From NCBI GenBank assembly GCA_005222965.1, contig NJBG01000001.1, positions 435,061-499,060 on the forward strand: a stretch of DNA of 64,000 nt. Reading direction: 5' to 3'. How positions within the stretch are numbered: position 1 is the stretch's first letter; every line of letters starts with the position of its first letter. The translations under genes were made by a program, and so were the position numbers. Of the stretch, positions 5,750 to 62,762 are shown piece after piece. Below the pieces are notes generated by a model that was not told where the DNA came from, ran no database searches, and was given only the letters and a program-made list of their open reading frames with translations. This DNA is from Candidatus Woesearchaeota archaeon B3_Woes. Its GTDB lineage: Archaea; Nanobdellota; Nanobdellia; Woesearchaeales; B3-WOES.

Positions 5750-6913
5750 TCAAACCCTTATATTTTTCATTATTTCGTAATATTTTGATGTTACTTTATC
5801 CCAGCCAAAGGTTGAATTTTTCTTTATAGCATTTTTTGATAATTTATCTTGAAGATTTTTATCTTTTATTAATTTTATGATATTTTCACTTAACAATTTA
5901 ACATCACCTCCTTGAGAGAATATTGCTTCTTGTCCATCTTTTATAAATTCTCTAATTCCCCCAACAGGAGAAATAATAGTGGGTTTGCCAAATGCTAAAG
6001 CAACAAGCAATGGACCACTTATTGTTTGTTCAGTATTATGATAAGGTAAAACGCATATATCTGCAACATCAAAAAATTTGTAAACTTCTTGGTTTGGTAT
6101 GAATTTTGGGAAAAATTTAACAAAGTTTTCTAATCCATTTAGTTCTTTTTCATAAACTTCCATATTCTGCCATAGTTCCCCTGCTATTATCAACCTTATG
6201 TTTTTATCTTCCTTTATCACTTCGTGCATCGATTTTAGAAGATATTTTAAACCTTTGTATTCACGAATATAACCAAAAAACAAAATTATTTTTTCATTTT
6301 CGTTTAAATTAAATTCTTTCTTTAATTCTTTTTTATTTTTCTTTCTCCATTTTGTAAAAAAATCAAATGTTCCGTGAGGAACAACATGGATTTTGTTGGG
6401 GTTTTTTCTATATTCCTTTATCAATCTAAGTTTATTTTGCTCTGCATGAACAATAAAATGATCTACTAAGGAAAAAACTTTTTTTGTGAAAATTCTATCA
6501 AATATTGTTGACTCATGAGGTTCAATATTGTGGCAAGTTAGTATAACTTTTTTTTTTCTAAACACACTATTTAGTTTCAAAATTGTATATTGTAATGGGG
6601 CTAATAAAGGAGACACCCAATGCAAAAACATTATGTCTGCTTTTTTCATGATATTATATGTTTTTATCCATGTAAATGGATTGTACCATTTGATAAAATT
6701 GGTATATTTAGTTTCAAAATGTAACCCATTACCACTTTTAGAAGGTAGTTTTCCTTTATAAAGAAAGGGAGGATACAGTTTATCGAAACCAACAATATTC
6801 AAATTAACTTTATTTTTTAATTGGTTAGCTAACAATACACAGTATTGAACTATTCCTCCTTGAAAAGGGGGATTATGAGTTAACATACATACTTTTATTT
6901 TATTTTTGTCCAT
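5750..6913 (-). CDS. Glycosyltransferase family 4 (GT-B)
   Basis: 387 aa. MLTHNPPFQGGIVQY N-terminus. C-terminal region has GELWQNMEVYEKE, ICVLPYHNTEQTISGPLLVALAFGKPTIISPVGGIREFI (E-x7-E-like GT4 region). Confidence 0.75.
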   Translation of the reverse strand: MDKNKIKVCMLTHNPPFQGGIVQYCVLLANQLKNKVNLNIVGFDKLYPPFLYKGKLPSKSGNGLHFETKYTNFIKWYNPFTWIKTYNIMKKADIMFLHWVSPLLAPLQYTILKLNSVFRKKKVILTCHNIEPHESTIFDRIFTKKVFSLVDHFIVHAEQNKLRLIKEYRKNPNKIHVVPHGTFDFFTKWRKKNKKELKKEFNLNENEKIILFFGYIREYKGLKYLLKSMHEVIKEDKNIRLIIAGELWQNMEVYEKELNGLENFVKFFPKFIPNQEVYKFFDVADICVLPYHNTEQTISGPLLVALAFGKPTIISPVGGIREFIKDGQEAIFSQGGDVKLLSENIIKLIKDKNLQDKLSKNAIKKNSTFGWDKVTSKYYEIMKNIRV

Positions 6914-9808: not shown

Positions 9809-9828
9809 CGATTAATAATCATTCTGTT

Positions 9829-9938
9829 TGGACGGTCATAGCAGCCGGGTTCCACATGGTCTCATTTCGAACCCATAAGTTAAACCGGCTTACGTTCTTA
9901 GAAGTACTGCATTACGCGGGAACCTAAGAAAGCTGTCC
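9829..9938 (+). rRNA. rrf: 5S ribosomal RNA (stand-alone, not linked to 16S/23S in this window)
   Basis: GC-rich island in an AT-rich background. ggtctcatttcgaacccataagttaaaccggc matches the universal 5S loop B/C consensus (CCCATCCCGAACCCGGAAGTTAAGC). The 5' tggacgg pairs with the 3' ctgtcca to form the terminal helix I. Length is about 110 nt. Confidence 0.75.
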
Positions 9939-9942
9939 ATCT

Positions 9943-12450: not shown

Positions 12451-13149
12451 TTATTTTACACACAGCTCTGGTTTTTCTTTATAATTTTTACATATTTCTT
12501 GAATTAAATCATCTTTGCCAATTAATTTGTCAAAAACAGAATCTTCTATAACTACAGAAGGTATTTTCGTAATATTATATGTTTGTTTTAATACCCCTAC
12601 CATGGGTTCGTTTCTGAAATCAGCATCTAAAGAAAATACCAAAAGCCTATCTTTTAATTTTTCTTTTAAATAGCTTAATACAGTTGATTGAGCACCACAC
12701 TCCACACATTCTTCATTCGAATAAAAATACAATACAGAGACATGTTCTGCTTGACAATTTTCCTTAATCTTTTGATTTAGTAACCAATACCTTATTTGAG
12801 CCAAAAGATATCCTCTTTTAAGCTCTGTATAGCTTTTTTTGCTTGTTTCTTGTATGTAAAAATCAACTTTTGATTGGGCCTTTCCTACATCATTTAAACT
12901 TGTTTCAAGAATTTTATTAAAAATATGGCAACTTACATTAGTTGCACTTAAATCTAAATAAAGTGATTGTAATTGTAAGCTTTCATAATCTATTTTTTGT
13001 TTATAAGATATTTCTTCTAAGTAGTCTGTTCTCTCTGCTGTTAAAGTGTATCCTACTAAGATGCCTATTAAAAAAATAAAAGAAGTTAATATTAAAGATA
13101 AAGCAAATCTCCTTTTGCTTATTACTCTCTCATAAGTCCCTTTTACCAT
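12451..13149 (-). CDS. Membrane-anchored thioredoxin-like (CxxC) protein, function unknown
   Basis: N-terminal TM (LSLILTSFIFLIGILVGYTL). C-terminal domain with a CVEC motif (SNEECVECGAQ) and alternating beta/alpha character. Last gene of the GT operon. Confidence 0.3.
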   Translation of the reverse strand: MVKGTYERVISKRRFALSLILTSFIFLIGILVGYTLTAERTDYLEEISYKQKIDYESLQLQSLYLDLSATNVSCHIFNKILETSLNDVGKAQSKVDFYIQETSKKSYTELKRGYLLAQIRYWLLNQKIKENCQAEHVSVLYFYSNEECVECGAQSTVLSYLKEKLKDRLLVFSLDADFRNEPMVGVLKQTYNITKIPSVVIEDSVFDKLIGKDDLIQEICKNYKEKPELCVK

Positions 13150-14384
13150 CTTTGTATTTTGCCTCTGATTAAATCAAATATAACTCCAATCCATATAACA
13201 CCAATCATAAAGGGGTAAAGGATAATATAAAAGAATATTGGTTTTTTATTGTGTCTTACTCTTTCGCCAGCTTTATGATGTGCTAAAACTAAAAATATTA
13301 AACCCAAGAATAAGATAACTAAACCATAAAACATGGGGGTAAAATTAAGATTAAGGATCGTATAATCTTTCACCCCTTTAGTAAACAAAGGGATAAAGTC
13401 GAAGTTTATATGGCTCAAATCATAAATTTTATCTATCAGGGGTTTTAGTAATTTCCAAAAAACCACTATTAAAAACAAAGTAACAGATATAAAAGCCGAT
13501 ATAAAAACCATAGGCATTTGTAAAACACCAAAATCTCCATAAGATCTGTTAAAAATCAATCTTCTATATTTAAAAATATTTATCAGACTTCCCTTGTACC
13601 ATCTATTTCTTTGTTTATAAAACTCTAAAAATGTACCGGGTGCTTTTGTAAGGATAGATGTTTCAAGGGTTTGAATAATTTCAAAATTTGCTTTTTGTAT
13701 CCTAATAGCGATTTCCAAATCCTCTACAAGGTTCTTTTCATCAAATCCCCCTAATCCAACAAGCACATCCTTTCTATAAACAGAAAAAGGTCCTGGTGTA
13801 ACATGTACACAATTTAAACGACTCATGACTCTTTTATAATAAAAATTAATTAAATATTCACAATGTTGTATTTGTCTCACAAGAGTTGATTTATGTTGTA
13901 CTTCAATAACAGGCAAAACAGCTGCAATATTTTTTTTATAAAAATGAGGGAGCAAAACCTGGAGCGCTTCTTTTTTAACAATAGAATCGGCATCTAAAGG
14001 CACAAAAAACTCTCCTTTAGCTCTTCTTAGAGCATTATTCATAGCAACGCCTTTTCCTTGATTTTTTTGGTTGATTAAAGTAATATTTCTATTTTTGTTT
14101 TCTTTAATTAGTTTTTCAACAACTTTTTTGGTGTTGTCCTTGCTTCCATCATTGACAACAATTATTTCTATTTTTTCTCTTGGATAATCCAAATCAATAA
14201 CAGATTGGATTGTTTCTTTTATATTTGATTCTTCATTATAAGCAGGCACACAAATAGTAACAAAAGGGAATTTCTTTAGTTTTCTTGGAGCCAACCTAAT
14301 TCCCTTTTCATATAATGTTAACAACCAAAAGATTACAAGATATAAAGAAATAAAATACGCTATAAGTATTATTGCTTTAATCAT
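13143..14384 (-). CDS. Processive family-2 glycosyltransferase (cellulose/chitin/hyaluronan synthase-like, membrane-integrated)
   Basis: N-terminal TM. GT-A motifs ICVPAYNEE, VVNDGSKDNT and DAD (PLDADSIV). Q(R)xRW motif in KQRNRWYKGS. C-terminal TM helices. Confidence 0.75.
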   Translation of the reverse strand: MIKAIILIAYFISLYLVIFWLLTLYEKGIRLAPRKLKKFPFVTICVPAYNEESNIKETIQSVIDLDYPREKIEIIVVNDGSKDNTKKVVEKLIKENKNRNITLINQKNQGKGVAMNNALRRAKGEFFVPLDADSIVKKEALQVLLPHFYKKNIAAVLPVIEVQHKSTLVRQIQHCEYLINFYYKRVMSRLNCVHVTPGPFSVYRKDVLVGLGGFDEKNLVEDLEIAIRIQKANFEIIQTLETSILTKAPGTFLEFYKQRNRWYKGSLINIFKYRRLIFNRSYGDFGVLQMPMVFISAFISVTLFLIVVFWKLLKPLIDKIYDLSHINFDFIPLFTKGVKDYTILNLNFTPMFYGLVILFLGLIFLVLAHHKAGERVRHNKKPIFFYIILYPFMIGVIWIGVIFDLIRGKIQRW

Positions 14385-31063: not shown

Positions 31064-31223
31064 TTTAAAAAATATTTCTTAAAAATTGAACTTTATCTAA
31101 TAAAAAATCTTTTGATTTAAAAGAAATGTAAATAAGTGCGAGTATAACGAATAAACCTATTATTAATCCAACTATAACAGACCAACCTGGTAATTCTCCT
31201 TTCTTAAAAAGATCTTTTCTCAT
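31056..31223 (-). CDS. Unannotated small ORF (~55 aa) with a pilin-like N-terminus
   Basis: Minus-strand translation gives MRKDLFKKG|ELPGWSVIVGLIIGLFVILALIYISFKSKDF… Its stop abuts the start of the 975-aa gene. Not in the ORF track (short). Confidence 0.25.
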
Positions 31224-32173
31224 CCTATTATATAAGTGCATTTTTCACTTACCTCGCTATAAGGCATTAAACTTAATACATTTACTGGTTTATGCACTTT
31301 GTCTTTGTTTATAATCCCTGTCCATTTCAAAAATGTTTCTCCATAGTTTACTAGCTTTAGAACATTAATACGTGCGTATACAATTGCTAATGGTTCATCA
31401 ACCTCATACAAATATTCTGGTGCGAATATTCCCTTATTAACATCATCTTTAGTATATTCATAAAAACTTCTTTGTTGTGGATCAATTATAACAGGATGTT
31501 TTTGCATCCATTCTGGTAAAGATGTTATTTCTCTTCCACTAAATTTTTCTTTTACTTTATCTTCAAATTTTATACGTGAACATAATAAACAAAAAGCAGG
31601 AGGTCCACTTGCTTCATAATTCCAAAATTGAAGACGGCTCAATACTTCTTTAGGAAGTGAACACTCTTTATTCTCAGGACAACCACATTTAAAATCTCCT
31701 TCCTTATTAGGTTCACACTCAATTAAACCCCACCACTCTTGAAAAACAGGCATTTGCCCCTTCCAAGCCACATCCCAACAACCCTTAATTTCATTTGCAA
31801 TAACCCTATTCATTTCAAATTCTAATAATTCTTCTTCACTATTTGAATGAAAACTAACATATTTTGAATCTTTATATTTTTCATTAAATTCATCAATCTC
31901 TTTTTGATTAGATTTCTTTTTATCTTCTAATTGTTCCAGAGTTATGTTTTTTCTTGTCATTTGACAATCTGGGGGTATTGTTTCTACACCTAAAACAGGA
32001 GACTTAGTAAGTGAACTCAATAAAAGGTTCCATTGACAATTTTTCTTTAGTGCTTCTTCTTCTAATACATTTCCCCATTCAATATAAACAAGAAGCAGCA
32101 CACCTAATGAAACCACAAGAACAATTAATGTTACGAGTATTGGTGAAAGATCTCCTTGTGCTTTTTTATTCAT
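31220..32173 (-). CDS. Cys-rich pilin-like protein (class III signal peptide)
   Basis: MNKKA|QGDLSPILVTLIVLVVSLGVLLLV. 317 aa, 12 Cys. Confidence 0.45.
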   Translation of the reverse strand: MNKKAQGDLSPILVTLIVLVVSLGVLLLVYIEWGNVLEEEALKKNCQWNLLLSSLTKSPVLGVETIPPDCQMTRKNITLEQLEDKKKSNQKEIDEFNEKYKDSKYVSFHSNSEEELLEFEMNRVIANEIKGCWDVAWKGQMPVFQEWWGLIECEPNKEGDFKCGCPENKECSLPKEVLSRLQFWNYEASGPPAFCLLCSRIKFEDKVKEKFSGREITSLPEWMQKHPVIIDPQQRSFYEYTKDDVNKGIFAPEYLYEVDEPLAIVYARINVLKLVNYGETFLKWTGIINKDKVHKPVNVLSLMPYSEVSEKCTYIIG

Positions 32174-32289
32174 GCAAACCCCTTCTCAACAACTTTTTTT
32201 AATATGTTCCAAAGCATGAGAAATACAACTAAAGCTATTATTAAAAAAATAAGGAAAACTAGTGCTTTTTTTGTACCTCCTTTTTTCAT
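32170..32289 (-). CDS. Unannotated tiny ORF (39 aa) with a pilin-like N-terminus
   Basis: MKKGG|TKKALVFLIFLIIALVVFLMLWNILKKVVEKGFA. Its stop overlaps the next start (ATGA). Confidence 0.25.
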   Translation of the reverse strand: MKKGGTKKALVFLIFLIIALVVFLMLWNILKKVVEKGFA

Positions 32290-32333
32290 AATAAATATAA
32301 TTTAAAGAACAAGATATATAAACTTTATGGTGG

Positions 32334-32570
32334 CTAGCTCCCCGCAGCCTTACCTATAGGAATACAGCAATCATCACATTCTTGTGTTTTTATAGTTGCT
32401 CCATAAGAACAAGGAGTTTTACACTCTCCTCCTTTTTCTGTACAACTGTCTAAACTAGTCTTAACGTCTCCAATTTTACCTGAAAACACAAAAAGAATAA
32501 CAGCCAGAACAATTAAAGCTAAAATTGATATAACAATCGTTTGTAAACTTAGTCCTTGTGCTTTTTTCAT
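32334..32570 (-). CDS. Small 6-Cys pilin-like protein (tandem paralog 1 of 3)
   Basis: MKKA|QGLSLQTIVISILALIVLAVILFVF. Mature about 50 aa with C…C…C…C…CC. Confidence 0.5.
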   Translation of the reverse strand: MKKAQGLSLQTIVISILALIVLAVILFVFSGKIGDVKTSLDSCTEKGGECKTPCSYGATIKTQECDDCCIPIGKAAGS

Positions 32571-32824
32571 TCTTGGTTCATACAGCAGTAGTTTCCACCA
32601 TCTGCTTTTCCATCTCCATCATCATCACAATTTATTATATATATGGGTGTTTCGTCTTTATTACAATCAGATGCACCACTAACACATTTACCATCACAAG
32701 AATCTATTCCTTTCTTAAAACTCCCCATTTTGCCGGATAAAAGAACAATTAGAATAACCAAAACAATAAGGACCAAGGCCGCTATTACTATTGTGTTCAA
32801 ACTTAGTCCTTGTGCTTTTTTCAT
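32567..32824 (-). CDS. Small 6-Cys pilin-like protein (tandem paralog 2 of 3)
   Basis: MKKA|QGLSLNTIVIAALVLIVLVIL. Has a DDDGDGKADGG loop and ends YCCMNQE. Confidence 0.5.
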   Translation of the reverse strand: MKKAQGLSLNTIVIAALVLIVLVILIVLLSGKMGSFKKGIDSCDGKCVSGASDCNKDETPIYIINCDDDGDGKADGGNYCCMNQE

Positions 32825-32839
32825 CTTAAAAAGAAAAAA

Positions 32840-33121
32840 TTATACAGAGATGCAACAAACCCCATCTACTGCTTGGCCTTCATTAACAGTTGAATCGCCA
32901 TCTAAATCGCAATCATAAGAAACTTCTCTTGTGTAATCTCCTTCACAACTGGTTCTTGAACAGAATCCACCCATTGTTTCACAATCTCCAGAACCCTCTC
33001 TGAATCCGCCCAACCTTCCCATAAATATAACTGCTAATATAACCATAACTAATAATGCTAATGCTGCTATTATTATAACATTAAGACTTAGTCCTTGTGC
33101 TTTTTTTCTCATAAGTTTCAC
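32840..33121 (-). CDS. Small 6-Cys pilin-like protein (tandem paralog 3 of 3)
   Basis: MKLMRKKA|QGLSLNVIIIAALALLVMVIL. Has a DCDLDGDSTVNEG loop and ends VCCISV. Confidence 0.5.
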   Translation of the reverse strand: MKLMRKKAQGLSLNVIIIAALALLVMVILAVIFMGRLGGFREGSGDCETMGGFCSRTSCEGDYTREVSYDCDLDGDSTVNEGQAVDGVCCISV

Positions 33122-33187
33122 CTCTTTGGATTAAACTGATACTATTAATTGTATTGATTTATGTTATATTTAAATCTTACTATTAAA

Positions 33188-33673
33188 TTATCCATAAATA
33201 TCCAATGTAATAGTCATAACACCAGCGTCTGTTTGTAAAAATTGGGTTTTTCTTTCTCTTTCTCTTACTGTCCTTTCTTTTCCTGCTTCAACAACAACCT
33301 TTCCAGGAACACTAGCTTTAAGATAATAATCTTTTACTAAACTTATGTTAAGAATAGTTTCTGTTAAATTATTTATTGTTTGAGTTGCATACCCTTGTGA
33401 ATCAGAAGGTGAACCAGGACAAGTTATGCTTGGATTATCCTTACTAGCATCACTTAATAATTCACCTATAGATATATCATTACATTCTGTATTAGTATTC
33501 AACAAAGTATTTAGCATATTTGCTGCTAATTGGGTTTCTGAATACTCTTTTCTATAAGTTTGTGGTGCTTTAAACAAGGTAAATCTTAATGCAAACATTA
33601 AACCAACCATCAATAATACAACTACAATTGCCAACCCCATTATTTCCATCTGCGCTTTTTTGTTTTTTCTCAT
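33188..33673 (-). CDS. Pilin-like protein (class III signal peptide)
   Basis: Start re-assigned to the internal Met at 33673: MRKNKKA|QMEIMGLAIVVVLLMVGLMF. Confidence 0.45.
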   Translation of the reverse strand: MRKNKKAQMEIMGLAIVVVLLMVGLMFALRFTLFKAPQTYRKEYSETQLAANMLNTLLNTNTECNDISIGELLSDASKDNPSITCPGSPSDSQGYATQTINNLTETILNISLVKDYYLKASVPGKVVVEAGKERTVRERERKTQFLQTDAGVMTITLDIYG

Positions 33674-33776
33674 TTTATCCGAATATTCTGTGAGGATATT
33701 TGAAAACACTTGAAAATCATTTGGATTTTCAGTGCACCAAAAATCTTTGATTTTTGTGTGTCTTTGATTTTCATTT

Positions 33777-50130: not shown

Positions 50131-50757
50131 ATGGTAAAGAAAAAAACAACTAAATCTGTGAAGAAAACTAAAAAAGCACCAAATAAACAAAAAAAAGATA
50201 ATAAAGACGTAAAAAAAGAAATAGAGATTGTTAATATCGTTGTAAGTACTTCTCTAGAACATGATATCCCTTTAGAAAAGATGGCGGCAACCCTGCCAAA
50301 TACAGAATATAATCCAGAGCAGTTTCCCGGGTTAGTTATAAGAATAAAAGATCCAAAAACCTCTGCATTAATATTTAGCTCTGGAAAGGTTGTTTGTACA
50401 GGGGCAAGAACAATACCAGATGTGCATGCTTCCTTAAAGAAAATTGTAAAAGCCTTAGAAAAGATTAAAATAAAGATTAAAATAACACCAGAAATAACAA
50501 TACAAAATATTGTTGCGTCTGGTTCAATAGGAATGGTATTAAATCTAAATGTATTGGCTATGAGGCTTAATAATGTGGAATATGAACCAGAACAATTTCC
50601 TGGGTTAGTTTACAAATTAATGAGCCAAGAAATAAAAGCAACTTTCTTGTTATTTAGCAACGGAAAGATTGTTTGTACAGGAACCAAATCAGAAGAAGAA
50701 GTTCATAAGGCTTTAGATAAATTAATTGTAAATCTGAAAAAAGTAAAAACCAGATAA
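50131..50757 (+). CDS. tbp: TATA-box binding protein with a Lys-rich N-terminal extension
   Basis: Two TBP repeats (IVNIVVSTSLEHDIPLEKMA…EQFPGLVIRIKDPKTSALIFSSGKVVCTGA and IQNIVASGSIGMVLNLNVLA…EQFPGLVYKLMSQEIKATFLLFSNGKIVCTG). N-terminus MVKKKTTKSVKKTKKAPNKQKKDNKDVKK. Confidence 0.9.
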   Translation: MVKKKTTKSVKKTKKAPNKQKKDNKDVKKEIEIVNIVVSTSLEHDIPLEKMAATLPNTEYNPEQFPGLVIRIKDPKTSALIFSSGKVVCTGARTIPDVHASLKKIVKALEKIKIKIKITPEITIQNIVASGSIGMVLNLNVLAMRLNNVEYEPEQFPGLVYKLMSQEIKATFLLFSNGKIVCTGTKSEEEVHKALDKLIVNLKKVKTR

Positions 50758-50774: not shown

Positions 50775-52811
50775 GTGTGGGGGCAATTGATGAATGTAGA
50801 AGAACAAGTTAAAAGATTTCAGAATTTTCTAGAAAAGAATTATAAAGCCCAGTTAGCTGAGAAAACAAGAAAAGGCGAAAGATATCTAGAAATTGATTTT
50901 TCTCTTCTGACAAAATTTGATCCTGAAATAGCAGAATTAATTTTAGAAGACCCAGAAGATCTAATAAAAGCCTTTGAACTCGGTGTTGAACAATTTGACA
51001 TCAACAAAGAAGCAAAGAGTATAAAAATCAGATTAACAAACATCCCAGAATCACAAAGAATCAATATTAATGAAATAAGGAGTAAACATTTAAACAAACT
51101 TTTCTTAATTGAAGGAGTAGTACGGCAAAAATCAGATGTACGCCCGCAAGTAACTTCAGCAAAATTCGAATGCCCCCAATGCGGAAACATAATTTCTGTT
51201 TTGCAATTAGACAGTGTATTTAAAGAGCCCACAAAATGTGGTTGTGGTAGAAAAGGGAAATTCAGATTGATTAGTAAAGAATTAGTAGATGCACAAGGCC
51301 TAACACTAGAAGAACCCCCAGAAAGCCTAGAAGGCCAAGGACAACCAAAAAGAATGAATGTTCTTCTTAAAAATGATTTAGTAAGTCCAATATCTGAAAG
51401 AAAAAGTGCTCCTGGTTCAAAAGTTAGGGTTATTGGTTCTATTAAAGAGGTGCCAATTACATCAAAAAGCGGAGGGAAATTAACAAGATTTGATTTATTG
51501 ATAGAAGCGAATAATGTTGAAGCATCTGAAGAAAGTTTCTATGATTTTCAGATATCAAAAGAAGACGAAGAAGAAATAAAAGAGCTTTCTAAAGACCCCG
51601 AACTTTATAAAAAATTAGTTGATTCGATAGCCCCTTCTATATTTGGTTATGATACAATAAAAGAATCATTACTATTGCAGTTAATGGGTGGGGTTAGAAA
51701 AGTTCGAAAAGATAAAATTGTTAGTAGAGGGGATGTACATATACTTTTAGTAGGAGACCCGGGAGCTGGAAAATCTGCTCTTGTAAGAAGAATACACGAC
51801 GTCTCTCCTAAAGGAATCTATGTTGCAGGCAGAGGGGCGAGCGCAGCAGGACTAACAGCATCTGTTGTTAAAGATGAGTTTTTAAGAGGTTTTGCAGTAG
51901 AAGCAGGAGCAATGGTGTTGAGTTCTGGAGGAATTTGTTGTATAGATGAAATGGATAAAATTTCAGAGGACGATAGAGCAGCAATGCATGAAGCAATGGA
52001 AAATCAAACAGTTAGTATTTCAAAAGCAAATATTCAAGCCACTTTAATAGCCAGAACAACCGTCTTGGCGGCTGCTAATCCTAAATTTGGAAGATTTGAC
52101 CCTTATGAAATTGTGGCCAAACAAATAGATATGCCCCCCACATTAATAAACAGGTTTGATCTAATATTCCCAATCAAAGATTTACCAGAAGAAATAAAAG
52201 ACAATAAACTAGCAACACACATGCTCAGATTACATCAAGACCCCCAGGCAATAGAAGAAAAAATTCCTACTCCTATGCTTAAAAAATATATTGCTTATGC
52301 ACGACAGAAAGTAAGCCCGAAATTAACAGATTCTGCTTTAAATGAAATCAGAGAGTATTATGTAAAGATGAGGATGATGGGTTCTTCGGACGAATCTTCA
52401 ATAAAAGCTGTTCCAATTTCACCAAGACAATTAGAAGCATTAGTAAGAATGGCAGAAGCAGCGGCAAGAGCGAGACTAGCTGATAAAGTGGTCAAAAAAG
52501 ATGCAATAAGGGCCATAAGTTTATTGGAATACTGCTTAAATCAGGTTGGGTTTGATAAAGAAACCGGAAAGATTGATATTGATAGAATAACAACAGGAGT
52601 AAGTGCTTCTCAAAGAAGCCACATATCCATAGTAAAAGAAATAATTAATGATTTAGAAAACAAAATTGGAAAAACCATTCCAATAGAAGATATAACAGAA
52701 GAAGCTGGTAACAAGGGTGTTGATTCTGATAAAGTTGATGAAATAATTGAAAGGTTAAAAAGAGCAGGAGATATTTTCGAACCAAGACATGGTTTTATAA
52801 GTAGAATTTGA
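50775..52811 (+). CDS. mcm: MCM replicative helicase
   Basis: C4 Zn finger CPQCGN…CGCG. Walker A GDPGAGKS. Walker B CCIDEMDK. Arginine finger and winged-helix C-terminus. 678 aa. Confidence 0.9.
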   Translation: MWGQLMNVEEQVKRFQNFLEKNYKAQLAEKTRKGERYLEIDFSLLTKFDPEIAELILEDPEDLIKAFELGVEQFDINKEAKSIKIRLTNIPESQRININEIRSKHLNKLFLIEGVVRQKSDVRPQVTSAKFECPQCGNIISVLQLDSVFKEPTKCGCGRKGKFRLISKELVDAQGLTLEEPPESLEGQGQPKRMNVLLKNDLVSPISERKSAPGSKVRVIGSIKEVPITSKSGGKLTRFDLLIEANNVEASEESFYDFQISKEDEEEIKELSKDPELYKKLVDSIAPSIFGYDTIKESLLLQLMGGVRKVRKDKIVSRGDVHILLVGDPGAGKSALVRRIHDVSPKGIYVAGRGASAAGLTASVVKDEFLRGFAVEAGAMVLSSGGICCIDEMDKISEDDRAAMHEAMENQTVSISKANIQATLIARTTVLAAANPKFGRFDPYEIVAKQIDMPPTLINRFDLIFPIKDLPEEIKDNKLATHMLRLHQDPQAIEEKIPTPMLKKYIAYARQKVSPKLTDSALNEIREYYVKMRMMGSSDESSIKAVPISPRQLEALVRMAEAAARARLADKVVKKDAIRAISLLEYCLNQVGFDKETGKIDIDRITTGVSASQRSHISIVKEIINDLENKIGKTIPIEDITEEAGNKGVDSDKVDEIIERLKRAGDIFEPRHGFISRI

Positions 52812-53479
52812 GAGAAAAAAGTACCATGAATGGGAATACTCAATCACAAAAAAGAAATGTAGCATATAAAGTAATGGTTAAAGATATTCTTAAAAGCAAC
52901 TATGTTAAAGTAGAAGGATGGACCCCGAATTACCTTGTCTTGGGGGATGGAAAACAAATTTCAAGAGTTAATCTCATTGGAACAATAATTGACAAGCCTT
53001 TAACAGAAAACCCAGGATACCAAAACATAGTTATTGATGATGGTTCTGGGAACATTGGTATTAGAACTTTCGAAGAAAAAGGCATTCTTAATAATTTTAA
53101 TATTGGCGATTCTATTTTAATAATTGGGCGGCCGCGTGAATTTGGAAAAGAAAAGTATGTTATCCCAGAAATAATTAAGAAAATAGAAAACAAAAGATGG
53201 ATAGAATTAAGAAAATTAGAAATGGGAGTGTCTTTTTCTAAAGAACAAAAAAAGGAACAACCCTCAAAAGTCGATGTTTATGATTTGGAAGAAGATATAG
53301 TTGTAGAAGACAGCAATCTTTTTGCATTAATAAAAAAACTAGACAAAGGGGAAGGGGCAGATTTTAATGAAATTGTAGAAAAATCCAATAACCAAGAAGC
53401 AGAAAAAATAATTAACAATATGATAAAACAAGGAGAGTTATTTGAGATCAACCCAGGAAAAATTAAAATTTTAGAATAA
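52808..53479 (+). CDS. RPA32/Stn1-like OB-fold protein with C-terminal winged helix (putative ssDNA-binding subunit)
   Basis: ISRVNLIGTIIDK…IVIDDGSGNIGIRTFEE resembles the RPA32 OB core (DDxTG). C-terminal wH-like LFALIKKLDKGEGADFNEIVEK. Start overlaps the MCM stop by 4 nt. Confidence 0.4.
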   Translation: MREKSTMNGNTQSQKRNVAYKVMVKDILKSNYVKVEGWTPNYLVLGDGKQISRVNLIGTIIDKPLTENPGYQNIVIDDGSGNIGIRTFEEKGILNNFNIGDSILIIGRPREFGKEKYVIPEIIKKIENKRWIELRKLEMGVSFSKEQKKEQPSKVDVYDLEEDIVVEDSNLFALIKKLDKGEGADFNEIVEKSNNQEAEKIINNMIKQGELFEINPGKIKILE

Positions 53480-54795: not shown

Positions 54796-55095
54796 ATGAT
54801 AGTAAAAACCCACCAAACAGAAGACAAAAGAATTCTTCTAGTGGTTTGTGATAATGAAATTCTTGGAAAGAAATTTGAAGAGGGGAACAAGCAACTAGAT
54901 CTTACATCTGATTTTTATAAAGGCATAGAAAAAACAGAGTTGGAAGTTTGTGATTTGATGAGAAATTGTGATATGATTAATTTAGTTGGAGAAAAGGTAA
55001 TAAATCTTGCTATAAAAGAAGGAGTTATTGATTCAGAACATGTAAAAAAAATCTCAGATATCCCTTATGCTCAGGTCGTTATACAAGGACTCTAA
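54796..55095 (+). CDS. Small conserved archaeal protein (DUF424-like?)
   Basis: 99 aa, immediately after aIF2-beta with a 1-nt gap. No motif. Assigned by context and size only. Confidence 0.25.
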   Translation: MIVKTHQTEDKRILLVVCDNEILGKKFEEGNKQLDLTSDFYKGIEKTELEVCDLMRNCDMINLVGEKVINLAIKEGVIDSEHVKKISDIPYAQVVIQGL

Positions 55096-58000
55096 CCAAA
55101 CCATTTGCCTAATCCTTCTTGTTTCTCTTTTTCCTTACCAAACATACCTTCTATCCTTCTTTGTAATAAAGTTAAACTCTGTTTTAAATAAACAGGAACA
55201 TTATATTTTTCAGCTAAACTAATAGAGGGTTCTAAATATTTTATAACGCTTCCTTTTGATATTGTAAAAATAATTTTTCCCCCGCATTTTGAACATTTTC
55301 CAATCAAAGGGGGCCTCCTAAACTTTTCATTGCATTTAACACATCTAAATTTCTGCATTGAAAACTTCCTCAAATTTCCTTTAGTATCTTTAATAAAATG
55401 CTTTTCGATTACTAGTCTTGCTTCATCAGATTCATCTACTGCAATTATCTTTTCGCCTAAATCCATTTGGCCTTTCAATTTATCTTCCATTGAGGGGATT
55501 GTTTTGTAAGCAGAACAAACTACCCCATCATTTATATTTGAAGTATCGTGAGTAAATCCAACATCACCATAACTTATATCATTTTGTATGTTTTTTATAA
55601 GTTGTTTGACTTCAACATCCCATGGTTGTTTATATTCTAAACATGCTTCATAAAAATCAAGAGGATACGTCCATGCGATATCTAAATCAAAAACCATATC
55701 ATCAACTTCTGTTGGAATTAATTTAGACGTTAAAACCAAAGGGGCGTCTTGTGATGATCCCCGATGTGAAGGTAAGTAAGATCTTGAAAAATTAATTAAA
55801 GCATCCATTAATAAAATTATACTTGCCTCATCCCCATCACAATCTCTCCGTGTTGCTGCATGTATCAAAGGATGGGCAAAAAAACCTTGCGTCTTTGAAA
55901 ATCCAATTATCCTTGTGAGTATGGCAGCAGAAGTGTGTGGTGCCAATGCCAAAGCAAGATGCCCAATTAAATTTTTTTTTTTATTAAAATTATAAAAAGA
56001 TTTTAAACCATACATTCTCTCGAGAGCATCATCAATAAAATTTGCTACATTAAACAAAATTTCATCTGCTCCTTTGTCTGGTGATTCAGGGCAAGCAGGT
56101 AAAATAATATCTTGGGGTTTTAGCTCTATTGTTTGTTCATCGTTGGTTAATTCGCTGCCTTTAGTGTCTTTTGTATAACTTAATTCTTTTAGTTTTTCAA
56201 TGCTTGTTCCAATCTCTTTTGGTTTAAAATGAGTTATGGGCATCTGGGTCATATCATATCTTGTTGTTCCGTCTTTATTAACATAAATATTATGTTTTGC
56301 TCTTAAAATTCCTTTCATTAAATTTTCAGGAGTATGATCTTTATTAGAAGTTCCTCTAACGCCTTTTATCAAATCAGGATAGTTTTTCATTTTTAATTTC
56401 TTTAAAGATTTGTTAAAGTAATCTTTTATATCAAAATCTTTAGTTACAAAAGGCATGTTTTTTCCGTGTTGGCATTCTTCTTTAGAAGTAACTCCGCATA
56501 TTTTACAATGATACATTTGTTTTGTTGGTTTTCCACAATCTAAACAAACCTTAGATATTGTTTCTTTATTGCATTTAGAACAAACAAATATAGGAAAATC
56601 TGCACGAATGGTCCCTACATCCAAAGCAGACTGAAAACACCGAAGACGCCCGCCTTCTTCTCCTACCGGAAACAAAACTTGAGGGCTCCCTGTTAATTCT
56701 CTTATCTTTGCTTTTTCTGGGCGCCCCATTCTCGCCCCAATAAACAAACCAGATTTGTCCCTTATTTTGACTTTTGAAATAATATTAATAATCTCTAAGA
56801 TTGGTTTGTCTTTGTTTTGATTTATCTTTTGTTTAATCTCTTTGATATCTTCTTTTGAAATTATACCTAAACTAATCATAAATGGTTTAGCGTGGTTTTT
56901 CTCAATAACAATAAATTCTTTATTGATAAATAAATGAGGCAACCCTATTTTTTCTAATGTCTCTTTTCCTTTTTCGTCTGATTTTAATATTATTTTCTCT
57001 ATGTTATTCCCATCTGCCACAATATCTGAAGACTCTATCAAATCCAACAAATATAATAAATCCTCAGCAGATATAGAATCAAAATGGAGTGTAAAAAAAG
57101 GGTGTAAAGGAATCTGCAGTTTTTCTGATATAGATATTGCAGCACCAGGTGATATTTTTGTTGTTAGGGGGTTTTTTAATAAAACAGAAAGAGCGTCTTT
57201 AGGTATATTGATTAACTCAGATAATTTATCTAAATTAAGACTCCCGAACATATTAACTGTCGCTTTTTCAAGTTCTTGAACCCACCACTCTTCACAATAG
57301 CCAGGGGGAGCTAAAACATGGGCCCTATTAAAAAAATCCCCATAACTAATTAGAATGTCTCCTAAAAACAAGATCTTCTTTATTTTGTCTTTAACTTCTT
57401 TTAATTGTTGTTTGTTCTCTATTCTCAAAACGCTTCCGTCTTCTACCTTTACAATTGGCCCTTCTATAGTATCACAAGGAGAAACAGTACATCCCTTGCC
57501 TGGCCTTTCTACTTTTAATTGGGTTCCCGTAGCAATATAGTCATTCATTACGCCCATTGTGAGGGGATTTATATTACATGCAGAATAACCAGATGTTCTT
57601 GATCTCCCATACCTCATCCTCAGGCCCCCTTTCCTCATAGGGTATGTTAAGATAGGTCTTCCTGCTGGAAGGTCTTTTATAAAAGTGAAGTCTGGGTTTA
57701 TTTTGGTTTCTTCTTTTGTTTCTCCTTTTGATTTTATTCTTTTTTGTAATTTAACAAAATCATTTAGAAAATTCCATTGTTCTAAATCAAACTCTTTTCC
57801 CCATTTAGAAAGTTGTTTCCATAGTTTTGGTGCCTTTTGTGCTATCCCTTCTCCTATTACCAAACACACCCCGTTTCTTATTCGATTTGTTTCAACTCTA
57901 TTCAAATCTTTATAATTTGATACTTCTATTTTTTCAGAAGGGTCTCCTGCAATCTGAACAGGAATATGTTGTGTTAAAAATTTTATCTCCTCTTCAGAAG

Positions 58001-58607
58001 GAAGATATTGGAGGTTTGTAATACGTTCATGGTAATCATATAATTCAGTTATATATCTTTTAATTTCTTGTTCGGTTGGATCATAAACCTCAAAACCCAT
58101 CTTTTTTCTTATATAATCTGCTATCAAAACAGAAACAGATGCTCCTGTTCCTCCTGCGCTCCTTATTGGTCCAGAAAAATATAATTTAAAATAATCTTTT
58201 CCATCCTTCCTTTTTTCTATTTGTAATTTAGTAAACCCCTCTAAAGGGCTTGCAACCGTTCCAAGAGTATGATAAGCAAAACCAACCCTTATTCCCACTT
58301 CCATTGCTTCTGTTTTGTCTTTAAACTTGCAAAATTTCTCTTTTGCTACTTCCTCTGCAATAAGAAGAGAAACTCTCCAATCAAGAACACCATATTTTTT
58401 TTCTAATTCTCTTAATCTCTTAGCAACGCCTTTATCAACAATTTGGGGTGCAACAGTGGAAATAATTCCTTCTACCCTCTCTGCCATGTCTTTAGCTACA
58501 GGAATCTCTACTTTCGGCTGGGGGTCGTGTCCTTTTTTTCTAGCTTCTGTTGCTGCTTTATACGCTTGTTTTAATTTTTTGTCTATTTCTTCAAAATATT
58601 CTTTCAT
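55092..58607 (-). CDS. DNA polymerase II (PolD) large subunit DP2
   Basis: 1171 aa. Central and C-terminal Zn fingers ([42 protein letters not shown]). Conserved DP2 catalytic-core blocks. No intein. Confidence 0.9.
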   Translation of the reverse strand: [1171 protein letters not shown]

Positions 58608-58611
58608 AAAA

Positions 58612-60180
58612 CTAAAACCTCATTATTTTCATATCTCTCGTCTTTAGATTTACAATAGGAACTCTGCAAGGTTCTGGATGATGTCCTACTTTCTCTTGAA
58701 AAGGCGTTTTAGACTGCCAACAGCTTCCACAAATTAAAGTAATGTTTTTGTAACTTGAAACAGAAGATTTATGGATATGTCCTGTAACAAAAAAATCAGG
58801 AATTTTATCTATAACTAAATTATCTTGGTTGGCGTCTGGAACATATAAAGTGGAAGTGTGGGTTGGCGCAAGATGTCTTCTTTTCAATAAAAATTTCATA
58901 ATAAGGTCTGCTCTATCATACCCTCCATTCATTCTTATTCCATCTACATTTGCAACATAATAATCAAAACTAAATCCATGATATAACAAAACATCAAAAC
59001 CAGAAAAATTATCAGAAGAGTGTATATTAACCATTGATGGGTTGCTTACCATATGTATATTTGGTAATTCCCATAACGATTTTGCAAAATCTTGGTATAA
59101 TTGGGGTTGTGGTTCTGCAATCCTCATTGCATCATGATTGCCGGGACAAACAATTAAATTTATGTTTGAAGGTATTTCTTTTAAGTATTTGGCGCATTCA
59201 TCATATTGTTTATAAATATCGTTTATAACAAGTTCCTCTTCTTGACCAGGGTATATCCCACATCCGTCAACAAGGTCTCCAACAATAAAAATATATTTTG
59301 TTTTTTTAGCAATTTCTTTTTGTTTTTCAGAACCAACCTCTCCTTTAATCCATTTGAGGAATTTCTGCATGTTTTCTTCTAAAAAATTGTCTGAGCCGAC
59401 ATGTAAATCTGACAAAAACAAAGCAAAAACCTCTTCATCTGCATTTTTTATCTCCTTATTTGAAGGTATTTCTGGCCATACAACATTATTTGCAAACACA
59501 ATATTCTCTCCGTTTACTCCCACAACCCCTATTATTTCATCTGCAACAATGTCTCTTGCTAATTTGAAAAGATCTGGTTTATTTTTATTAATTAAAACAT
59601 TTATAGAATCTGTCCGATCTTCCACAGTCAGGATTATATTGCCATTCTTAGTAATTTTTTTATCTCCAACAATGGCTATCAAAGATAGATTGTCTTTGTC
59701 TTGTTTTTGTTTTATTCTTTTAATAGATAATAAGTTTTGTAATTCCACCCTATTCTTTAATATTTTTTCAATACTATCGAATCTTTTATTAAACAAATAT
59801 ACAAAATCTTGGACTTCTCTTTTTTTAGATTCTTCATCATAAGAAAATATTATTTTAACATCTTTGTTCCCAATTGGTTTTTCTTCTTCGTTTCCATTCA
59901 TATATTCTGTGAATTTATCATATAGTTTGTCGTTCCCTTTTTTTGCTAAGACTACCGACTTATCATATTCCTTCCAATTGATGTCTTTTCTCGTTGATAC
60001 TAAAAATTCTTCTAGGTGTTGATCTAATATTAGAAAAGAATCAGAATCAATTTTATTTTTTATATTCTCATAAAATTGGTTTAAATCGACATCATTTTCA
60101 GCTAATTTCTCTATAATCTGTTTGCTAATTAGAATACTCTTATCTAAAAAAAACTTTATTATTTCTTTTTTGTCTTTCAT
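58612..60180 (-). CDS. DNA polymerase II (PolD) small subunit DP1 (calcineurin-like phosphoesterase, proofreading exonuclease)
   Basis: Metallophosphatase motifs FLSDLHVGS, IFIVGDLVD, PGNHD and HGF…GHIH. N-terminal OB domain. 522 aa. Confidence 0.85.
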   Translation of the reverse strand: MKDKKEIIKFFLDKSILISKQIIEKLAENDVDLNQFYENIKNKIDSDSFLILDQHLEEFLVSTRKDINWKEYDKSVVLAKKGNDKLYDKFTEYMNGNEEEKPIGNKDVKIIFSYDEESKKREVQDFVYLFNKRFDSIEKILKNRVELQNLLSIKRIKQKQDKDNLSLIAIVGDKKITKNGNIILTVEDRTDSINVLINKNKPDLFKLARDIVADEIIGVVGVNGENIVFANNVVWPEIPSNKEIKNADEEVFALFLSDLHVGSDNFLEENMQKFLKWIKGEVGSEKQKEIAKKTKYIFIVGDLVDGCGIYPGQEEELVINDIYKQYDECAKYLKEIPSNINLIVCPGNHDAMRIAEPQPQLYQDFAKSLWELPNIHMVSNPSMVNIHSSDNFSGFDVLLYHGFSFDYYVANVDGIRMNGGYDRADLIMKFLLKRRHLAPTHTSTLYVPDANQDNLVIDKIPDFFVTGHIHKSSVSSYKNITLICGSCWQSKTPFQEKVGHHPEPCRVPIVNLKTRDMKIMRF

Positions 60181-60205: not shown

Positions 60206-61417
60206 TTAAGAGATATCCAAACCTTCCTCTAATATTTGTTTTATTTTTTTATTTGTGGTTTCAGGAGTAGATAAAGTGATTTCTCTTGTTCTTCCATATC
60301 TTCCTTTACTAATAACCCTTGCATTAATAATACCCATCATATCCATTTCAGCAATCAGATCCCCTATTCGTCTTTGGGTAAGTGGTTTAAGATTTATTTG
60401 ACTACATAAATTTTTATACGTATCATATATCTGTCCTGTTAAAATAACCTCATTATTTTTTGAATTTATAAGCAACATAGAGTATAAGGTTGCTTGTGAT
60501 TGTTTTGGTTGTGTTGTGATTATATCAAATACTCTGTCTTTCTCTATCTTTTCTTCTGCCTCATCAATGTGTTTGATATTAACGCTTTTAGATCCTTCTC
60601 TTTCTGCAACCTCTCCTGCTACTCTTAATAAATCTAAAGCTCTTCTTGCATCTCCATGTTCCTTTGCAGAATATGCAGCACATTTTTCAACAACCCCTTG
60701 TTTTAAAACGTTTTTCTTAAATGCTTTGTTTGATCTTTTTCTTAATATGTCCTGCAATTGAAGAGCGTTATAAGGTGGAAACAATATATCTTCCTCGGAT
60801 AATCTGCTTTTTACTCTGGGATCAATATTATCAATAAAACGGGAGTTATTAGATATTCCTACAATGGAAATTTGTGAATTTTTAAGTTCTTCATTTATAC
60901 TTATAAGATTATAAAGAATATCGTCCCCTGTTTTATTAACTAATTGGTCTATTTCATCTAAAACTATCAATAAAAACTTCTCTTTTTTATCAACAGCATC
61001 AACAAATATTCTATACACCCCATCTGTGGGGAGGCCAGTATCTGGTATTTTCTTGCCCATCTCCCTACCAAGCTGCGCAATAATTCTATATTCTGTATCT
61101 GCAACCCTTTTTAATTTACAATTCACATATATTACTGTTATGGGTTTATCTGCTTTTTCTGCTGCTTCTTTTAATTGATTTGTGATATGTTTTATAGAAA
61201 CAGTTTTTCCTGTTCCGGTCTTGCCATATATAAAAAGATTAGACGGCCTTTCTAACTTCATTACAGGGGCCAATATGTTTTGTATTTTCTCGATTTGTTC
61301 TCCTCTATGTTCAATAGTATCAGGCAAATAAGATATTTGTAATATTTTTTTATTGGTAAATATTTCCTCTTTTTTTAAGAAATTTTCAAAGAAATTTGAT
61401 GAATTTTGTTTTTTCAT
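60206..61417 (-). CDS. cdc6: Orc1/Cdc6 origin-recognition and initiator protein
   Basis: AAA+ Walker A YGKTGTGKTV. Walker B LIVLDEID. Sensor motifs. C-terminal winged helix. Confidence 0.9.
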   Translation of the reverse strand: MKKQNSSNFFENFLKKEEIFTNKKILQISYLPDTIEHRGEQIEKIQNILAPVMKLERPSNLFIYGKTGTGKTVSIKHITNQLKEAAEKADKPITVIYVNCKLKRVADTEYRIIAQLGREMGKKIPDTGLPTDGVYRIFVDAVDKKEKFLLIVLDEIDQLVNKTGDDILYNLISINEELKNSQISIVGISNNSRFIDNIDPRVKSRLSEEDILFPPYNALQLQDILRKRSNKAFKKNVLKQGVVEKCAAYSAKEHGDARRALDLLRVAGEVAEREGSKSVNIKHIDEAEEKIEKDRVFDIITTQPKQSQATLYSMLLINSKNNEVILTGQIYDTYKNLCSQINLKPLTQRRIGDLIAEMDMMGIINARVISKGRYGRTREITLSTPETTNKKIKQILEEGLDIS

Positions 61418-61471
61418 AGAATATTGTTGTTTTTATTTCCTATATAAGGATTATTGAACTATAAAATACAT

Positions 61472-61499
61472 ACCCCTTTACTTCTATTGGAGATAGTGG
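61472..61499 (-). promoter_or_regulatory. ORB-like element (inverted orientation)
   Basis: accccttta-cttctattggaga is a reverse-complement match to the archaeal ORB consensus TTCCAGTGGAAAcgAAAGGGGT (GGGGT tract plus TCCA-n-TGGA core). Confidence 0.45.
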
Positions 61500-61797
61500 T
61501 TCAAAAAATGGGTGTTTTGCTTAAATAATCTATTTATTTTATTCATTGTTTTTCTATGTATTTAAACATATATTATAAAAAACATATTTTTTTAAATAAC
61601 TATTTTAAAATATAAAACGAATAATATATATTTATTCTCTCTTATTATTATTTTCAATATTGAAAACAATATTATATTATAATATACATATAAGATTATA
61701 ATTATTCAAAATATACTTAATAAAATACATATCAAAAAACCAATAATAGAAAAGATATATACAAAAAACACCAAAAAACCAATTTTTTGATAAAAAA

Positions 61798-61820
61798 TCT
61801 TCCACACGCAACAAAGGGGT
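61798..61820 (+). promoter_or_regulatory. ORB-like element (forward orientation)
   Basis: cTTCCACACGCAACAAAGGGGT against consensus TTCCAGTGGAAACGAAAGGGGT. Confidence 0.5.
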
Positions 61821-61905
61821 AACAATCATAGAAAAACCCTTTTTATCACTTTAGAATAACAACAAAATAGAAAGATTTAAATACTGTATACCCATCTTCT
61901 TTCTT

Positions 61906-61915
61906 GAAAAGGGGT
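61906..61915 (+). promoter_or_regulatory. Mini-ORB-like G-string (GAAAAGGGGT)
   Basis: Third copy of the AAAGGGGT tract, 90 bp downstream of the forward ORB. It lacks the TTCCA half-site. Confidence 0.3.
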
Positions 61916-61949
61916 TCTGATAATTTAAACAACGTTTGGGGGAATAAAG

Positions 61950-62762
61950 ATGATCGCACAAAAGAATTTTTTATCAAAATTAAGAGATTTTGGCCTAAAT
62001 ACTTATGAAAGTAAGCTTTGGACTGCTTTGTTGTCTAGAGGGGTTTCAACAGCAGGAGAACTATCAAATATAGCAAACGTACCAAGATCTAGAACCTATG
62101 ATGTACTAGAAAGTTTAGAAAAAAAAGGTTTTATTATATTAAATGTAGGAAAACCAATAAAATATCTTGCAGTTCCTCCTGAAGAGGTTGTCGAAAGAGT
62201 AAAAAAGAAAGTAAAAGAAGAATCAGATACAAAAACAATTTTACTCGAAGAACTTAAAAATTCCACAATTCTTGAAGAACTTAATATTATTCACAAACAA
62301 GGTTCCTCTGAAATTGAACCATCAGACCTGGTGGGATATTTTAAAGGGAAAAAAACCATTTACAACAATATCGAATTAATGATAAGAGAAGCAAAAACTT
62401 CTGTTCTCCTTATGACAAATGAAGAAGGAATTAAAACACAAAAACACATATTATTAGATGTTTTATCAAAAAATAAAGATAAAAAAATTGATGTAAAAAT
62501 AGCTGCACCAATAACCAAAGAAAACATAAAAGAAGCAAAAGAACTTTCAAGATTCGCAGAAATAAGAAACACAAAAAATAAATCAAGGTTTTGTATTATA
62601 GATGGCGAAAAAATTATATTTATGCTTTTAGATGATACAAATCTAGATCCAAACTATGACTGTGCAGTATGGGCAGAATCTAAACCATTCTTAACATCAT
62701 TAAGAGATTTGTTTGAATCAAACTGGCCAAACCTAGAACCTTTAAACAAAATAAAAATTTAA
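61950..62762 (+). CDS. TrmB-family transcriptional regulator
   Basis: N-terminal wHTH LGLNTYESKLWTALLSRGVSTAGELSNIANVPRSRTYDVLESLEKKGFI. 270 aa with a C-terminal effector-like domain. Confidence 0.75.
   Translation: MIAQKNFLSKLRDFGLNTYESKLWTALLSRGVSTAGELSNIANVPRSRTYDVLESLEKKGFIILNVGKPIKYLAVPPEEVVERVKKKVKEESDTKTILLEELKNSTILEELNIIHKQGSSEIEPSDLVGYFKGKKTIYNNIELMIREAKTSVLLMTNEEGIKTQKHILLDVLSKNKDKKIDVKIAAPITKENIKEAKELSRFAEIRNTKNKSRFCIIDGEKIIFMLLDDTNLDPNYDCAVWAESKPFLTSLRDLFESNWPNLEPLNKIKI

Follow-up and report, generated by a model that had tools for sequence, protein, structure and literature searches.

In Sulfolobus (S. solfataricus and S. islandicus), the origin oriC1 adjoins the initiator gene orc1-1, and two origin recognition boxes (ORBs) in inverted orientation flank a duplex unwinding element (DUE) rich in A and T; each ORB is a dyad with a G-rich end and receives one Orc1-1 monomer in a defined polarity (PMC12141716). 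Midway between the inverted ORB2 and ORB3 lies ucm (ATTATACAAA, as given in the supplement of that paper), a motif that is essential for firing and is bound by UBP, which contacts MCM at its N-terminal domains in what is modelled as an MCM-UBP-MCM arrangement; according to the same paper, ubp occurs in Desulfurococcales and Sulfolobales alone, and its authors raise the question of analogous factors elsewhere among the archaea (PMC12141716). In Pyrococcus, the TTCC and GAA cores are invariant in ORBs and mini-ORBs and are needed for Cdc6 binding (Matsunaga et al., PMC1904270), and in Haloarcula oriC1 the terminal G-string is essential and is contacted by the AAA+ domain (PMC3936714). The locus considered here is a 532-bp spacer, positions 61418-61949 of a 64,000-nt stretch of the genome of the uncultured Candidatus Woesearchaeota archaeon B3_Woes (the window), between an orc1/cdc6 gene and a divergent gene for a TrmB-like regulator. 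This spacer is very probably the oriC1-type chromosomal replication origin of B3_Woes: the original prediction of an origin with inverted ORBs around a DUE, beside orc1/cdc6 and the PolD operon, is supported by the uniqueness, conservation and arrangement of the elements and by the Orc1-1 type of the initiator.

Two ORBs are present in the spacer, one proximal to cdc6 (ORB-L) and one distal (ORB-R). They lie on opposite strands with their G-strings pointing outward, flank 305 bp of AT-rich DNA, and both combine a TTCC-N4-GAA dyad core with a G-string at one end. Scores come from a position matrix built from 40 sites of related loci, none of them from the window, and the two ORBs stand well apart from everything else (Table 1): the runner-up on both strands of the 64 kb (128 kb of scanned strand) reaches 14.8 bits, and three sites score at least 14 bits against 0.22 expected, with a chance expectation below one even at 10 bits. 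Beyond the two ORBs, the 64-kb window holds no site of at least 15 bits. The strings named in the original prediction are all present, TTCCACACGCAACAAAGGGGT at 61800-61820 on the plus strand and ACCCCTTTACTTCTATTGGAGA at 61472-61493; the end given for the reverse element, 61499, was 6 nt too long. The window has seven copies of the octamer AAAGGGGT, and three of these are clustered inside 444 bp at the spacer (simulated P about 0.005). A second inverted pair of this octamer, 160 bp apart at 13209-13216 (+) and 13372-13379 (-), lies within a 413-aa minus-strand open reading frame (ORF; 13143-14384); without an ORB dyad and below 8 bits, it is judged to be a chance occurrence.

A third G-string, near trmB, which the original prediction listed after the two ORB-like strings, is not an ORB. 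It scores under 3 bits, has no TTCC..GAA dyad and is poorly conserved: of the four relatives aligned, three have GAGG or AGGT in place of its GGGG (L081, L087 and L088; related loci are cited by L numbers throughout), and its invariant fraction is 0.17, compared with 0.74-0.87 for the ORBs. Because a conserved block resembling a TFB recognition element (BRE) and a TATA box lies about 26 nt upstream of it, the G-string is predicted to sit at the start of the trmB leader. Mini-ORBs are likewise absent from 61381-61990, where a dyad-only matrix retrieves just the two full ORBs, and within dp1 (58612-60180) no match to the ORB matrix reaches 8 bits; the sole loose pattern match there, at 59525-59546, has two mismatches at invariant positions. 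With no third ORB, no mini-ORBs and no ORB cluster in dp1, the origin is, judged from its elements, of the ordinary, well-known archaeal oriC1 design and of the minimal two-ORB type.

The arrangement recurs in related genomes. Comparison was made with 80 loci carrying relatives of Orc1/Cdc6 at 56-64% identity, nearly all from Woesearchaeota or Nanoarchaeota metagenome-assembled genomes (MAGs). Motifs were selected by the hexamer AAGGGG alone, in the 1 kb upstream of cdc6, and the unselected flanks of these matches share the motif tTTCCAyAnGAAAynAAGGGGT. Across the 80 loci, the kilobase upstream of cdc6 carries 2.0 ORBs per kb and the flanks (about 810 kb) 0.012 per kb, a difference of about 160 times. 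Of the related loci, 59 have 800 nt or more of upstream sequence, and 49 of these carry an inverted ORB pair, which with the window makes 50 pairs. In most relatives the proximal ORB, its G-string facing the gene, is about 75-125 nt away from the cdc6 ATG, while the distal ORB has the opposite orientation and a position 200-700 nt upstream; the DNA between them has a median length of 226 bp (range 104-992 bp) and a median GC content of 15%. An assumption-free count of enriched 8-mers gives pieces of the ORB dyad as its top signals, together with a palindrome that is described below.

Alignments with closer relatives (Cdc6 75-91% identical, four lineages) show which parts of the spacer are kept. 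The only conserved islands are the ORBs (invariant fraction 0.87 for ORB-L and 0.74 for ORB-R), the palindrome and two predicted promoters; the block from ORB-L to the cdc6 TATA box has an invariant fraction of 0.66. Over 100, 200 and 300 bp alike, the lowest GC content of the 64 kb is found in the DNA between the ORBs, with a minimum over 200 bp of 10% compared with 16.5% for the next lowest stretch, and the spacer as a whole has 20.9% GC versus 30% for the window. The extreme AT-richness first noted for the core of the spacer is thus borne out, the DUE being the most AT-rich DNA of the window.

The initiator gene is of the matching kind. Its product is 100% identical to the Cdc6 of B3_Woes, which is encoded on a contig of 1,000,545 bp. 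The nearest solved structures to the window Orc1/Cdc6 are S. solfataricus Orc1-1 (2qby_A, E 3e-106) and Aeropyrum pernix ORC1 (2v1u_A, E 3e-92), with Orc1-3 much more distant (E 2e-43); by these sequence relationships the initiator is of the Orc1-1, ORB-binding type. The spacer begins at the cdc6 start codon, so that it directly adjoins a gene of the Orc1-1 class, and the gene order cdc6-DP1-DP2 is common to all close relatives.

About midway along the DUE lies a conserved palindrome that the original prediction overlooked, and which is possibly a new accessory element. Its family consensus is ATTATTTTC-WATATW-GAAAATAAT, and its invariant fraction is 0.70, against 0.28 for the remainder of the DUE. 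With a matrix trained without the window, the window copy scores 25.0 bits, the next site in the window 6.4 bits and the best site in 100 shuffles 20.7 bits. Exactly one palindrome occurs between the ORBs in 41 of the 50 pairs, at a median relative position of 0.46; its centre is at least 41 bp from any ORB edge, and in 15 of the 41 it is 41-55 bp from the nearer ORB. Unbiased 9-mer counts in the 50 inter-ORB spacers place pieces of the palindrome by far the highest in enrichment (TCAATATAG in 21 of 50, versus 0.1 expected), and the strict 10-mer TC[AT]ATAT[AT]GA occurs at 2.4 per kb between ORBs versus 0.017 per kb outside, the latter about equal to the prediction from base composition. The commonest form, TCAATATAGA or its reverse complement TCTATATTGA, accounts for 20 of the 33 strict copies and is asymmetric; its two orientations relative to cdc6 (8 versus 12 copies) show no preference, and the palindrome may be as near as about 130 nt to the genes or as far as 690 nt from them. 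Conservation is highest at a single C and a single G, at 3.4 bits each, and the half-sites are about one helical turn apart.

The palindrome is probably neither an ORB nor ucm. Unlike an ORB, it has no G-string and a TTC-to-GAA spacing of 6 rather than 5 nt. The Sulfolobus ucm is absent from the spacer; the closest matches, with one or two mismatches, lie in pure A/T context away from the palindrome. A literature search on the palindrome strings returned only unrelated primers, and the collection of papers searched had none that deals with DPANN origins or B3_Woes.

One locus indicates that the elements travel together. In L008, a compact ORB-palindrome-ORB unit (12990-13135, its ORBs about 92 bp apart) is situated past PolD DP2, 7 kb downstream of the cdc6 start, and adjoins no initiator gene; the site upstream of cdc6 (4800-4930) retains one ORB and the palindrome only, and an extra 308-aa ORF (4931-5857) precedes cdc6. 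This suggests that the L008 origin has been disrupted and relocated or duplicated, and since the unit lies 7 kb from cdc6, the three elements appear to behave as one unit independent of flanking promoters. Apart from this unit, no ORB matches were found downstream of cdc6 in the relatives.

By analogy with the origins of Sulfolobus, Aeropyrum, Pyrococcus and Haloarcula (PMC12141716, PMC3936714, PMC1904270, PMC4010727), one Orc1/Cdc6 monomer would bind each inverted ORB, in opposite polarity, the winged helix contacting the TTCC-N4-GAA dyad and the AAA+ domain the G-string. This pair of initiators would then load MCM onto the 305 bp of AT-rich DNA between them, from which replication would proceed bidirectionally, and a further protein on the palindrome may act between the two helicases or in opening the DNA. 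With the cdc6 TATA box a short way downstream of ORB-L, initiator binding to this ORB probably regulates cdc6 as well.

Set beside the described origins, the window shares with Sulfolobus oriC1 the adjoining orc1-1-type gene, the inverted ORBs around an AT-rich DUE, the composition of the ORB itself and, roughly halfway along the DUE, one short conserved motif, and its initiator is most similar to S. solfataricus Orc1-1. Sulfolobus has, however, a third ORB and a 130-bp ORB3-DUE-ORB2 unit, whereas the window has two ORBs 305 bp apart, and the mid-DUE motif of Sulfolobus is the non-palindromic ucm, that of the window a palindrome of 16-22 bp without similarity to it. The oriC of Pyrococcus abyssi and P. 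furiosus (Thermococcales) is likewise found upstream of a cdc6-dp1-dp2 cluster, with two long ORBs as an inverted repeat, each with a TTCC...GAA core and a G-run at one end (TTCCAGTGGAAATGAAACTCTGGGGGG there, TTCCAyAnGAAAynAAGGGGT here; PMC1904270). That origin differs in its many 13-bp mini-ORBs and the second ORB cluster within dp1, and the spacer from dyad to G-string is about 5-6 nt shorter in the window. The Pyrococcus half of the label 'Pyrococcus/Sulfolobus-type' given in the original prediction is therefore loose, and the window origin is closer to the minimal Haloarcula oriC1 or to the ORB2/ORB3 core of Sulfolobus than to the mini-ORB-rich Pyrococcus origin. Haloarcula hispanica oriC1 has essential G-strings at its ORB ends and an extra inverted-repeat element between the ORBs (PMC3936714); this extra element is G-rich, with halves each directly inside an ORB, and is a non-essential enhancer, in contrast to the single compact A/T-rich palindrome of the window, at least 41 bp from the ORBs. 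In position the palindrome resembles ucm, also a single-copy conserved element of the DUE roughly midway between inverted ORBs, and the distance from palindrome to ORB would accommodate a single MCM hexamer on either side, in keeping with the MCM-UBP-MCM model (PMC12141716). The sequences are unrelated, and ucm is asymmetric and bound by a UBP monomer; the proposed analogy is one of position only.

What the palindrome does may be read in several ways. Its invariant C and G, the asymmetry of its commonest form and the weakness of its hairpin point to a sequence-specific protein, probably a dimeric one, and the palindrome is therefore most likely the binding site of an additional dimeric protein acting at the origin. 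TBP/TFB are candidate binders, the core being TATA-like and the half-site AGAAAA BRE-like, as is the TrmB-like protein encoded beside the origin; adjacency of trmB and presence of the palindrome show no association among the loci (Fisher P 0.76), but trmB could lie elsewhere in those genomes. More specifically, and as a tentative proposal drawn from the ucm analogy, the palindrome (TTTTC-WATATW-GAAAA) might be a lineage-specific third origin element of Woesearchaeal (DPANN) origins, at which a UBP-like dimeric accessory protein would sit between two MCM hexamers and be needed for activation. That the palindrome instead represents back-to-back archaeal promoters bound by TBP/TFB, with divergent and possibly non-coding transcription out of the DUE that could aid opening, seems unlikely. 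The TATA-like WATATW core, the agreement of AGAAAA with the BRE-like TAGAAAG of the predicted trmB promoter (61868-61883) and the lack of orientation preference would suit such promoters, but in a canonical promoter the BRE-like half would stand on the other side of the central TATATA, each flanking gene has a conserved TATA box of its own near its start codon, and downstream of the palindrome nothing is conserved, no Rfam match is found and the distance to the genes varies. Less likely still is selection for a DNA structure, be it a cruciform, a hairpin or the point at which melting nucleates most easily. The 16-bp palindrome of the window is perfect, centred on TpA and located in the least stable DNA of the region, and its single strand folds a little better than shuffled sequences do (z -2.05); against this, the two W positions show no covariation, the commonest form would leave a mismatch in the hairpin, melting does not require the best-conserved C and G, and the hairpin is weak at -5.1 kcal/mol, with 8 of 200 shuffles folding at least as well.

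The reading of the whole spacer as an origin also has competitors. Were the ORB pair solely an operator, at which Orc1/Cdc6 acts on its own promoter and perhaps on that of trmB, the spacer would be a divergent promoter, with initiation elsewhere or dependent on recombination. ORB-L does lie 21-26 nt upstream of the predicted cdc6 TATA box, and several relatives have an extra weak ORB-like site over the cdc6 start. Two further points would agree with such a reading. Some archaea can dispense with the intact oriC and cdc6 that they carry; Thermococcus kodakarensis, for one, replicates without cdc6 and the presumed origin (PMC5663688). Nor did skew tests place an origin here: the cumulative GC-skew minimum of the window, at 61-62 kb, merely tracks gene strand, the window reaching just 2 kb to the right of the spacer so that skew is read locally, and when sense-strand GC, GC3 and AT3 skew (the last two at third codon positions) were compared between plus- and minus-strand genes on each side of the origin, so as to separate gene strand from side, about 550 ORFs from the 80 loci gave no switch in GC or GC3 skew. 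AT3 skew in the relatives has a weak effect, on one side only (P 0.03). Gene orientation, by contrast, speaks for the origin: of the 53 ORFs to the left of the spacer, 38 run along the minus strand and are directed away from it (P 0.002), and the share of coding sequence in the relatives that is directed away from the origin is 67% on one side and 93% on the other, the 93% figure being dominated by the conserved cdc6-PolD operon. An operator alone is nonetheless improbable, as autoregulation needs no second inverted ORB 200-700 bp off across the most AT-rich DNA, kept in 49 related loci; the L008 unit is complete 7 kb from cdc6 with no initiator gene adjoining; and this architecture marks the origin in all studied archaea, where regulation and origin function coexist (PMC4010727, PMC12141716). 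Chance matches in AT-rich intergenic DNA are scarcely credible as an explanation: short G-strings do occur elsewhere in the window, such as the inverted AAAGGGGT pair at 13209/13372 inside a gene, but the ORBs score 27-29.5 bits versus 14.8 for the next site, and an equivalent pair stands at the equivalent place in 49 related genomes.

Table 1. Origin elements, predicted promoters and neighbouring genes in the 64,000-nt window.
Feature	Position	Strand	Basis and remarks
ORB-L, cdc6-proximal ORB, TCTCCAATAGAAGTAAAGGGGTA	61471-61493	-	27.0 bits; G-string towards cdc6, away from DUE
ORB-R, distal ORB, CTTCCACACGCAACAAAGGGGTA	61799-61821	+	29.5 bits; G-string towards trmB, away from DUE
AT-rich DUE between the ORBs	61494-61798		305 bp, 14.1% GC; lowest GC in window
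Mid-DUE palindrome	61648-61669		25.0 bits; perfect 16-mer TTTTCAATATTGAAAA at 61651-61666
'Third G-string' GAAAAGGGGT, not an ORB	61906-61915	+	<3 bits; predicted trmB transcription start / 5' leader
Predicted cdc6 TATA box, TTATATA	61441-61447	-	Read from sequence; centred about 27 nt upstream of ATG
Conserved block with predicted trmB promoter	61853-61884	+	Invariant fraction 0.75; BRE-like TAGAAAG, then TATA ATTTAAATA (61875-61883)
orc1/cdc6 initiator gene, Orc1-1 type	60206-61417	-	403 aa; Pfam Cdc6_C, Cdc6_lid, AAA
PolD operon (DP1 58612-60180, DP2 55092-58607)	55092-60180	-	Pfam; directly downstream of cdc6
TrmB-like winged-helix regulator gene, divergent from cdc6	61950-62762	+	Pfam TrmB E 6e-21, Regulator_TrmB E 2e-5
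TBP	50131-50757	+	Pfam
MCM	50775-52811	+	Pfam
OB-fold protein, RPA32-like	52808-53479	+	Resembles Pyrococcus RPA32, E = 1e-14

The cdc6 and trmB promoters are both predicted, the latter from the archaeal BRE/TATA consensus. Since the cdc6 TATA box is centred so near the ATG, its position implies a leaderless or short-leader cdc6 mRNA, and the 32-nt block upstream of trmB is among the best-conserved parts of the spacer. Rfam returned no family matches in the spacer or DUE, and a scan for sigma-70 promoters, which is irrelevant to archaea, gave no enrichment. Just inside the ORBs, a 19-nt inverted repeat (61501-61519 and 61772-61790, 89% complementary) was considered as a counterpart of the haloarchaeal enhancer repeat and ruled out, as it is unconserved already among relatives with 75-91% identical Cdc6; further away, all that relatives share beside the ORBs is a generally A+C-rich composition. 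On both sides of the DUE (61494-61560 and 61700-61798), as in the inner ORB flanks of relatives, the strand reading towards the ORB is A-rich with scattered C, in AAAACA-like runs, and by inspection the plus strand changes from T-rich to A-rich near the palindrome.

Several relatives carry ORB-like sites in addition to the pair. Strong ORBs (19-33 bits) are found 5-6 kb upstream of cdc6, at the edge of the retrieved DNA, in L020 (about -5145), L031 (about -5889), L032 (about -5706) and L078 (about -5919), and a few relatives have extra high-scoring palindromes without ORBs, namely L040 (-1815, -3228), L070 (-4726), L004 (-1184) and L023 (-3208); these could be second origins, titration sites or chance occurrences in very AT-rich genomes. 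A weak ORB-like element (16-19 bits) lies on the opposite strand over the cdc6 start codon or leader in L005, L010, L037, L046 and L080 (about -26), and as TTCCAAACGAAAAGGGGG in L038 and L063 (about -23). It may be an extra autoregulatory operator, and the dyad-only matrix found none in the window (61381-61990).

A further observation concerns assembly. In 21 of the 80 loci the contig ends less than 700 nt upstream of cdc6, mostly 30-170 nt past the proximal ORB and hence inside the DUE; these include L001, L002, L009, L011, L015, L017, L022, L024, L029, L030, L035, L042, L045, L054, L061, L067 and L079. Ends at this place are far commoner than random breaks would give, and probably reflect failure of assembly or coverage in DNA of 5-15% GC.

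As to the genes of the window, the original calls of Orc1/Cdc6, PolD DP1/DP2, MCM, TBP and TrmB are confirmed by Pfam, and that of the RPA32-like protein by its match to Pyrococcus RPA32; MCM, the RPA32-like protein and TBP are all at most 12 kb from the spacer. Of the 45 loci scanned (the window counted), 24 have a TrmB-family gene as the first one past the origin on its upstream side, and the TrmB-family neighbours in other loci have 40-55% identity to the window protein; the close relatives all have such a gene. Beyond trmB, a relative with 91% identity (L081, 1-9461) encodes more proteins of replication, repair and information processing, namely FEN1/XPG, Hjc resolvase, TFE-alpha, an eIF-2B-family protein and a tRNA-splicing endonuclease, with 8 of 11 genes on this far side directed away from the origin; the window stops before the equivalent region. 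The sole Rfam family detected in the window is a 5S rRNA gene (9828-9941, plus strand, 74 bits), with neither a 16S nor a 23S rRNA gene in the window, and no tRNA genes were found in the 64 kb. At 31220-33709, tandem small minus-strand genes (78, 85 and 93 aa) with flanking genes of 317 and 173 aa encode proteins that share an MKKAQGLSL-like N terminus followed by a hydrophobic helix and have Cys-rich C-terminal parts; they look like type IV pilin-like proteins with a class III signal peptide.

In practical terms, the spacer would mark the start of replication in a complete 1-Mb DPANN genome, and the ORB matrix locates the origin for the majority of the related Woesearchaeota loci that were compared. 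For metagenomics, about a quarter of the related contigs end in the DUE, so that origins in MAGs are often split across contig ends. The palindrome offers a defined DNA bait for finding a DPANN factor. That DPANN archaea have a different motif, just as well placed as ucm, suggests that origins may generally require a factor between the two helicases, supplied by different proteins, and if the palindrome does have such a role, a distant lineage of archaea would have solved the same problem independently.

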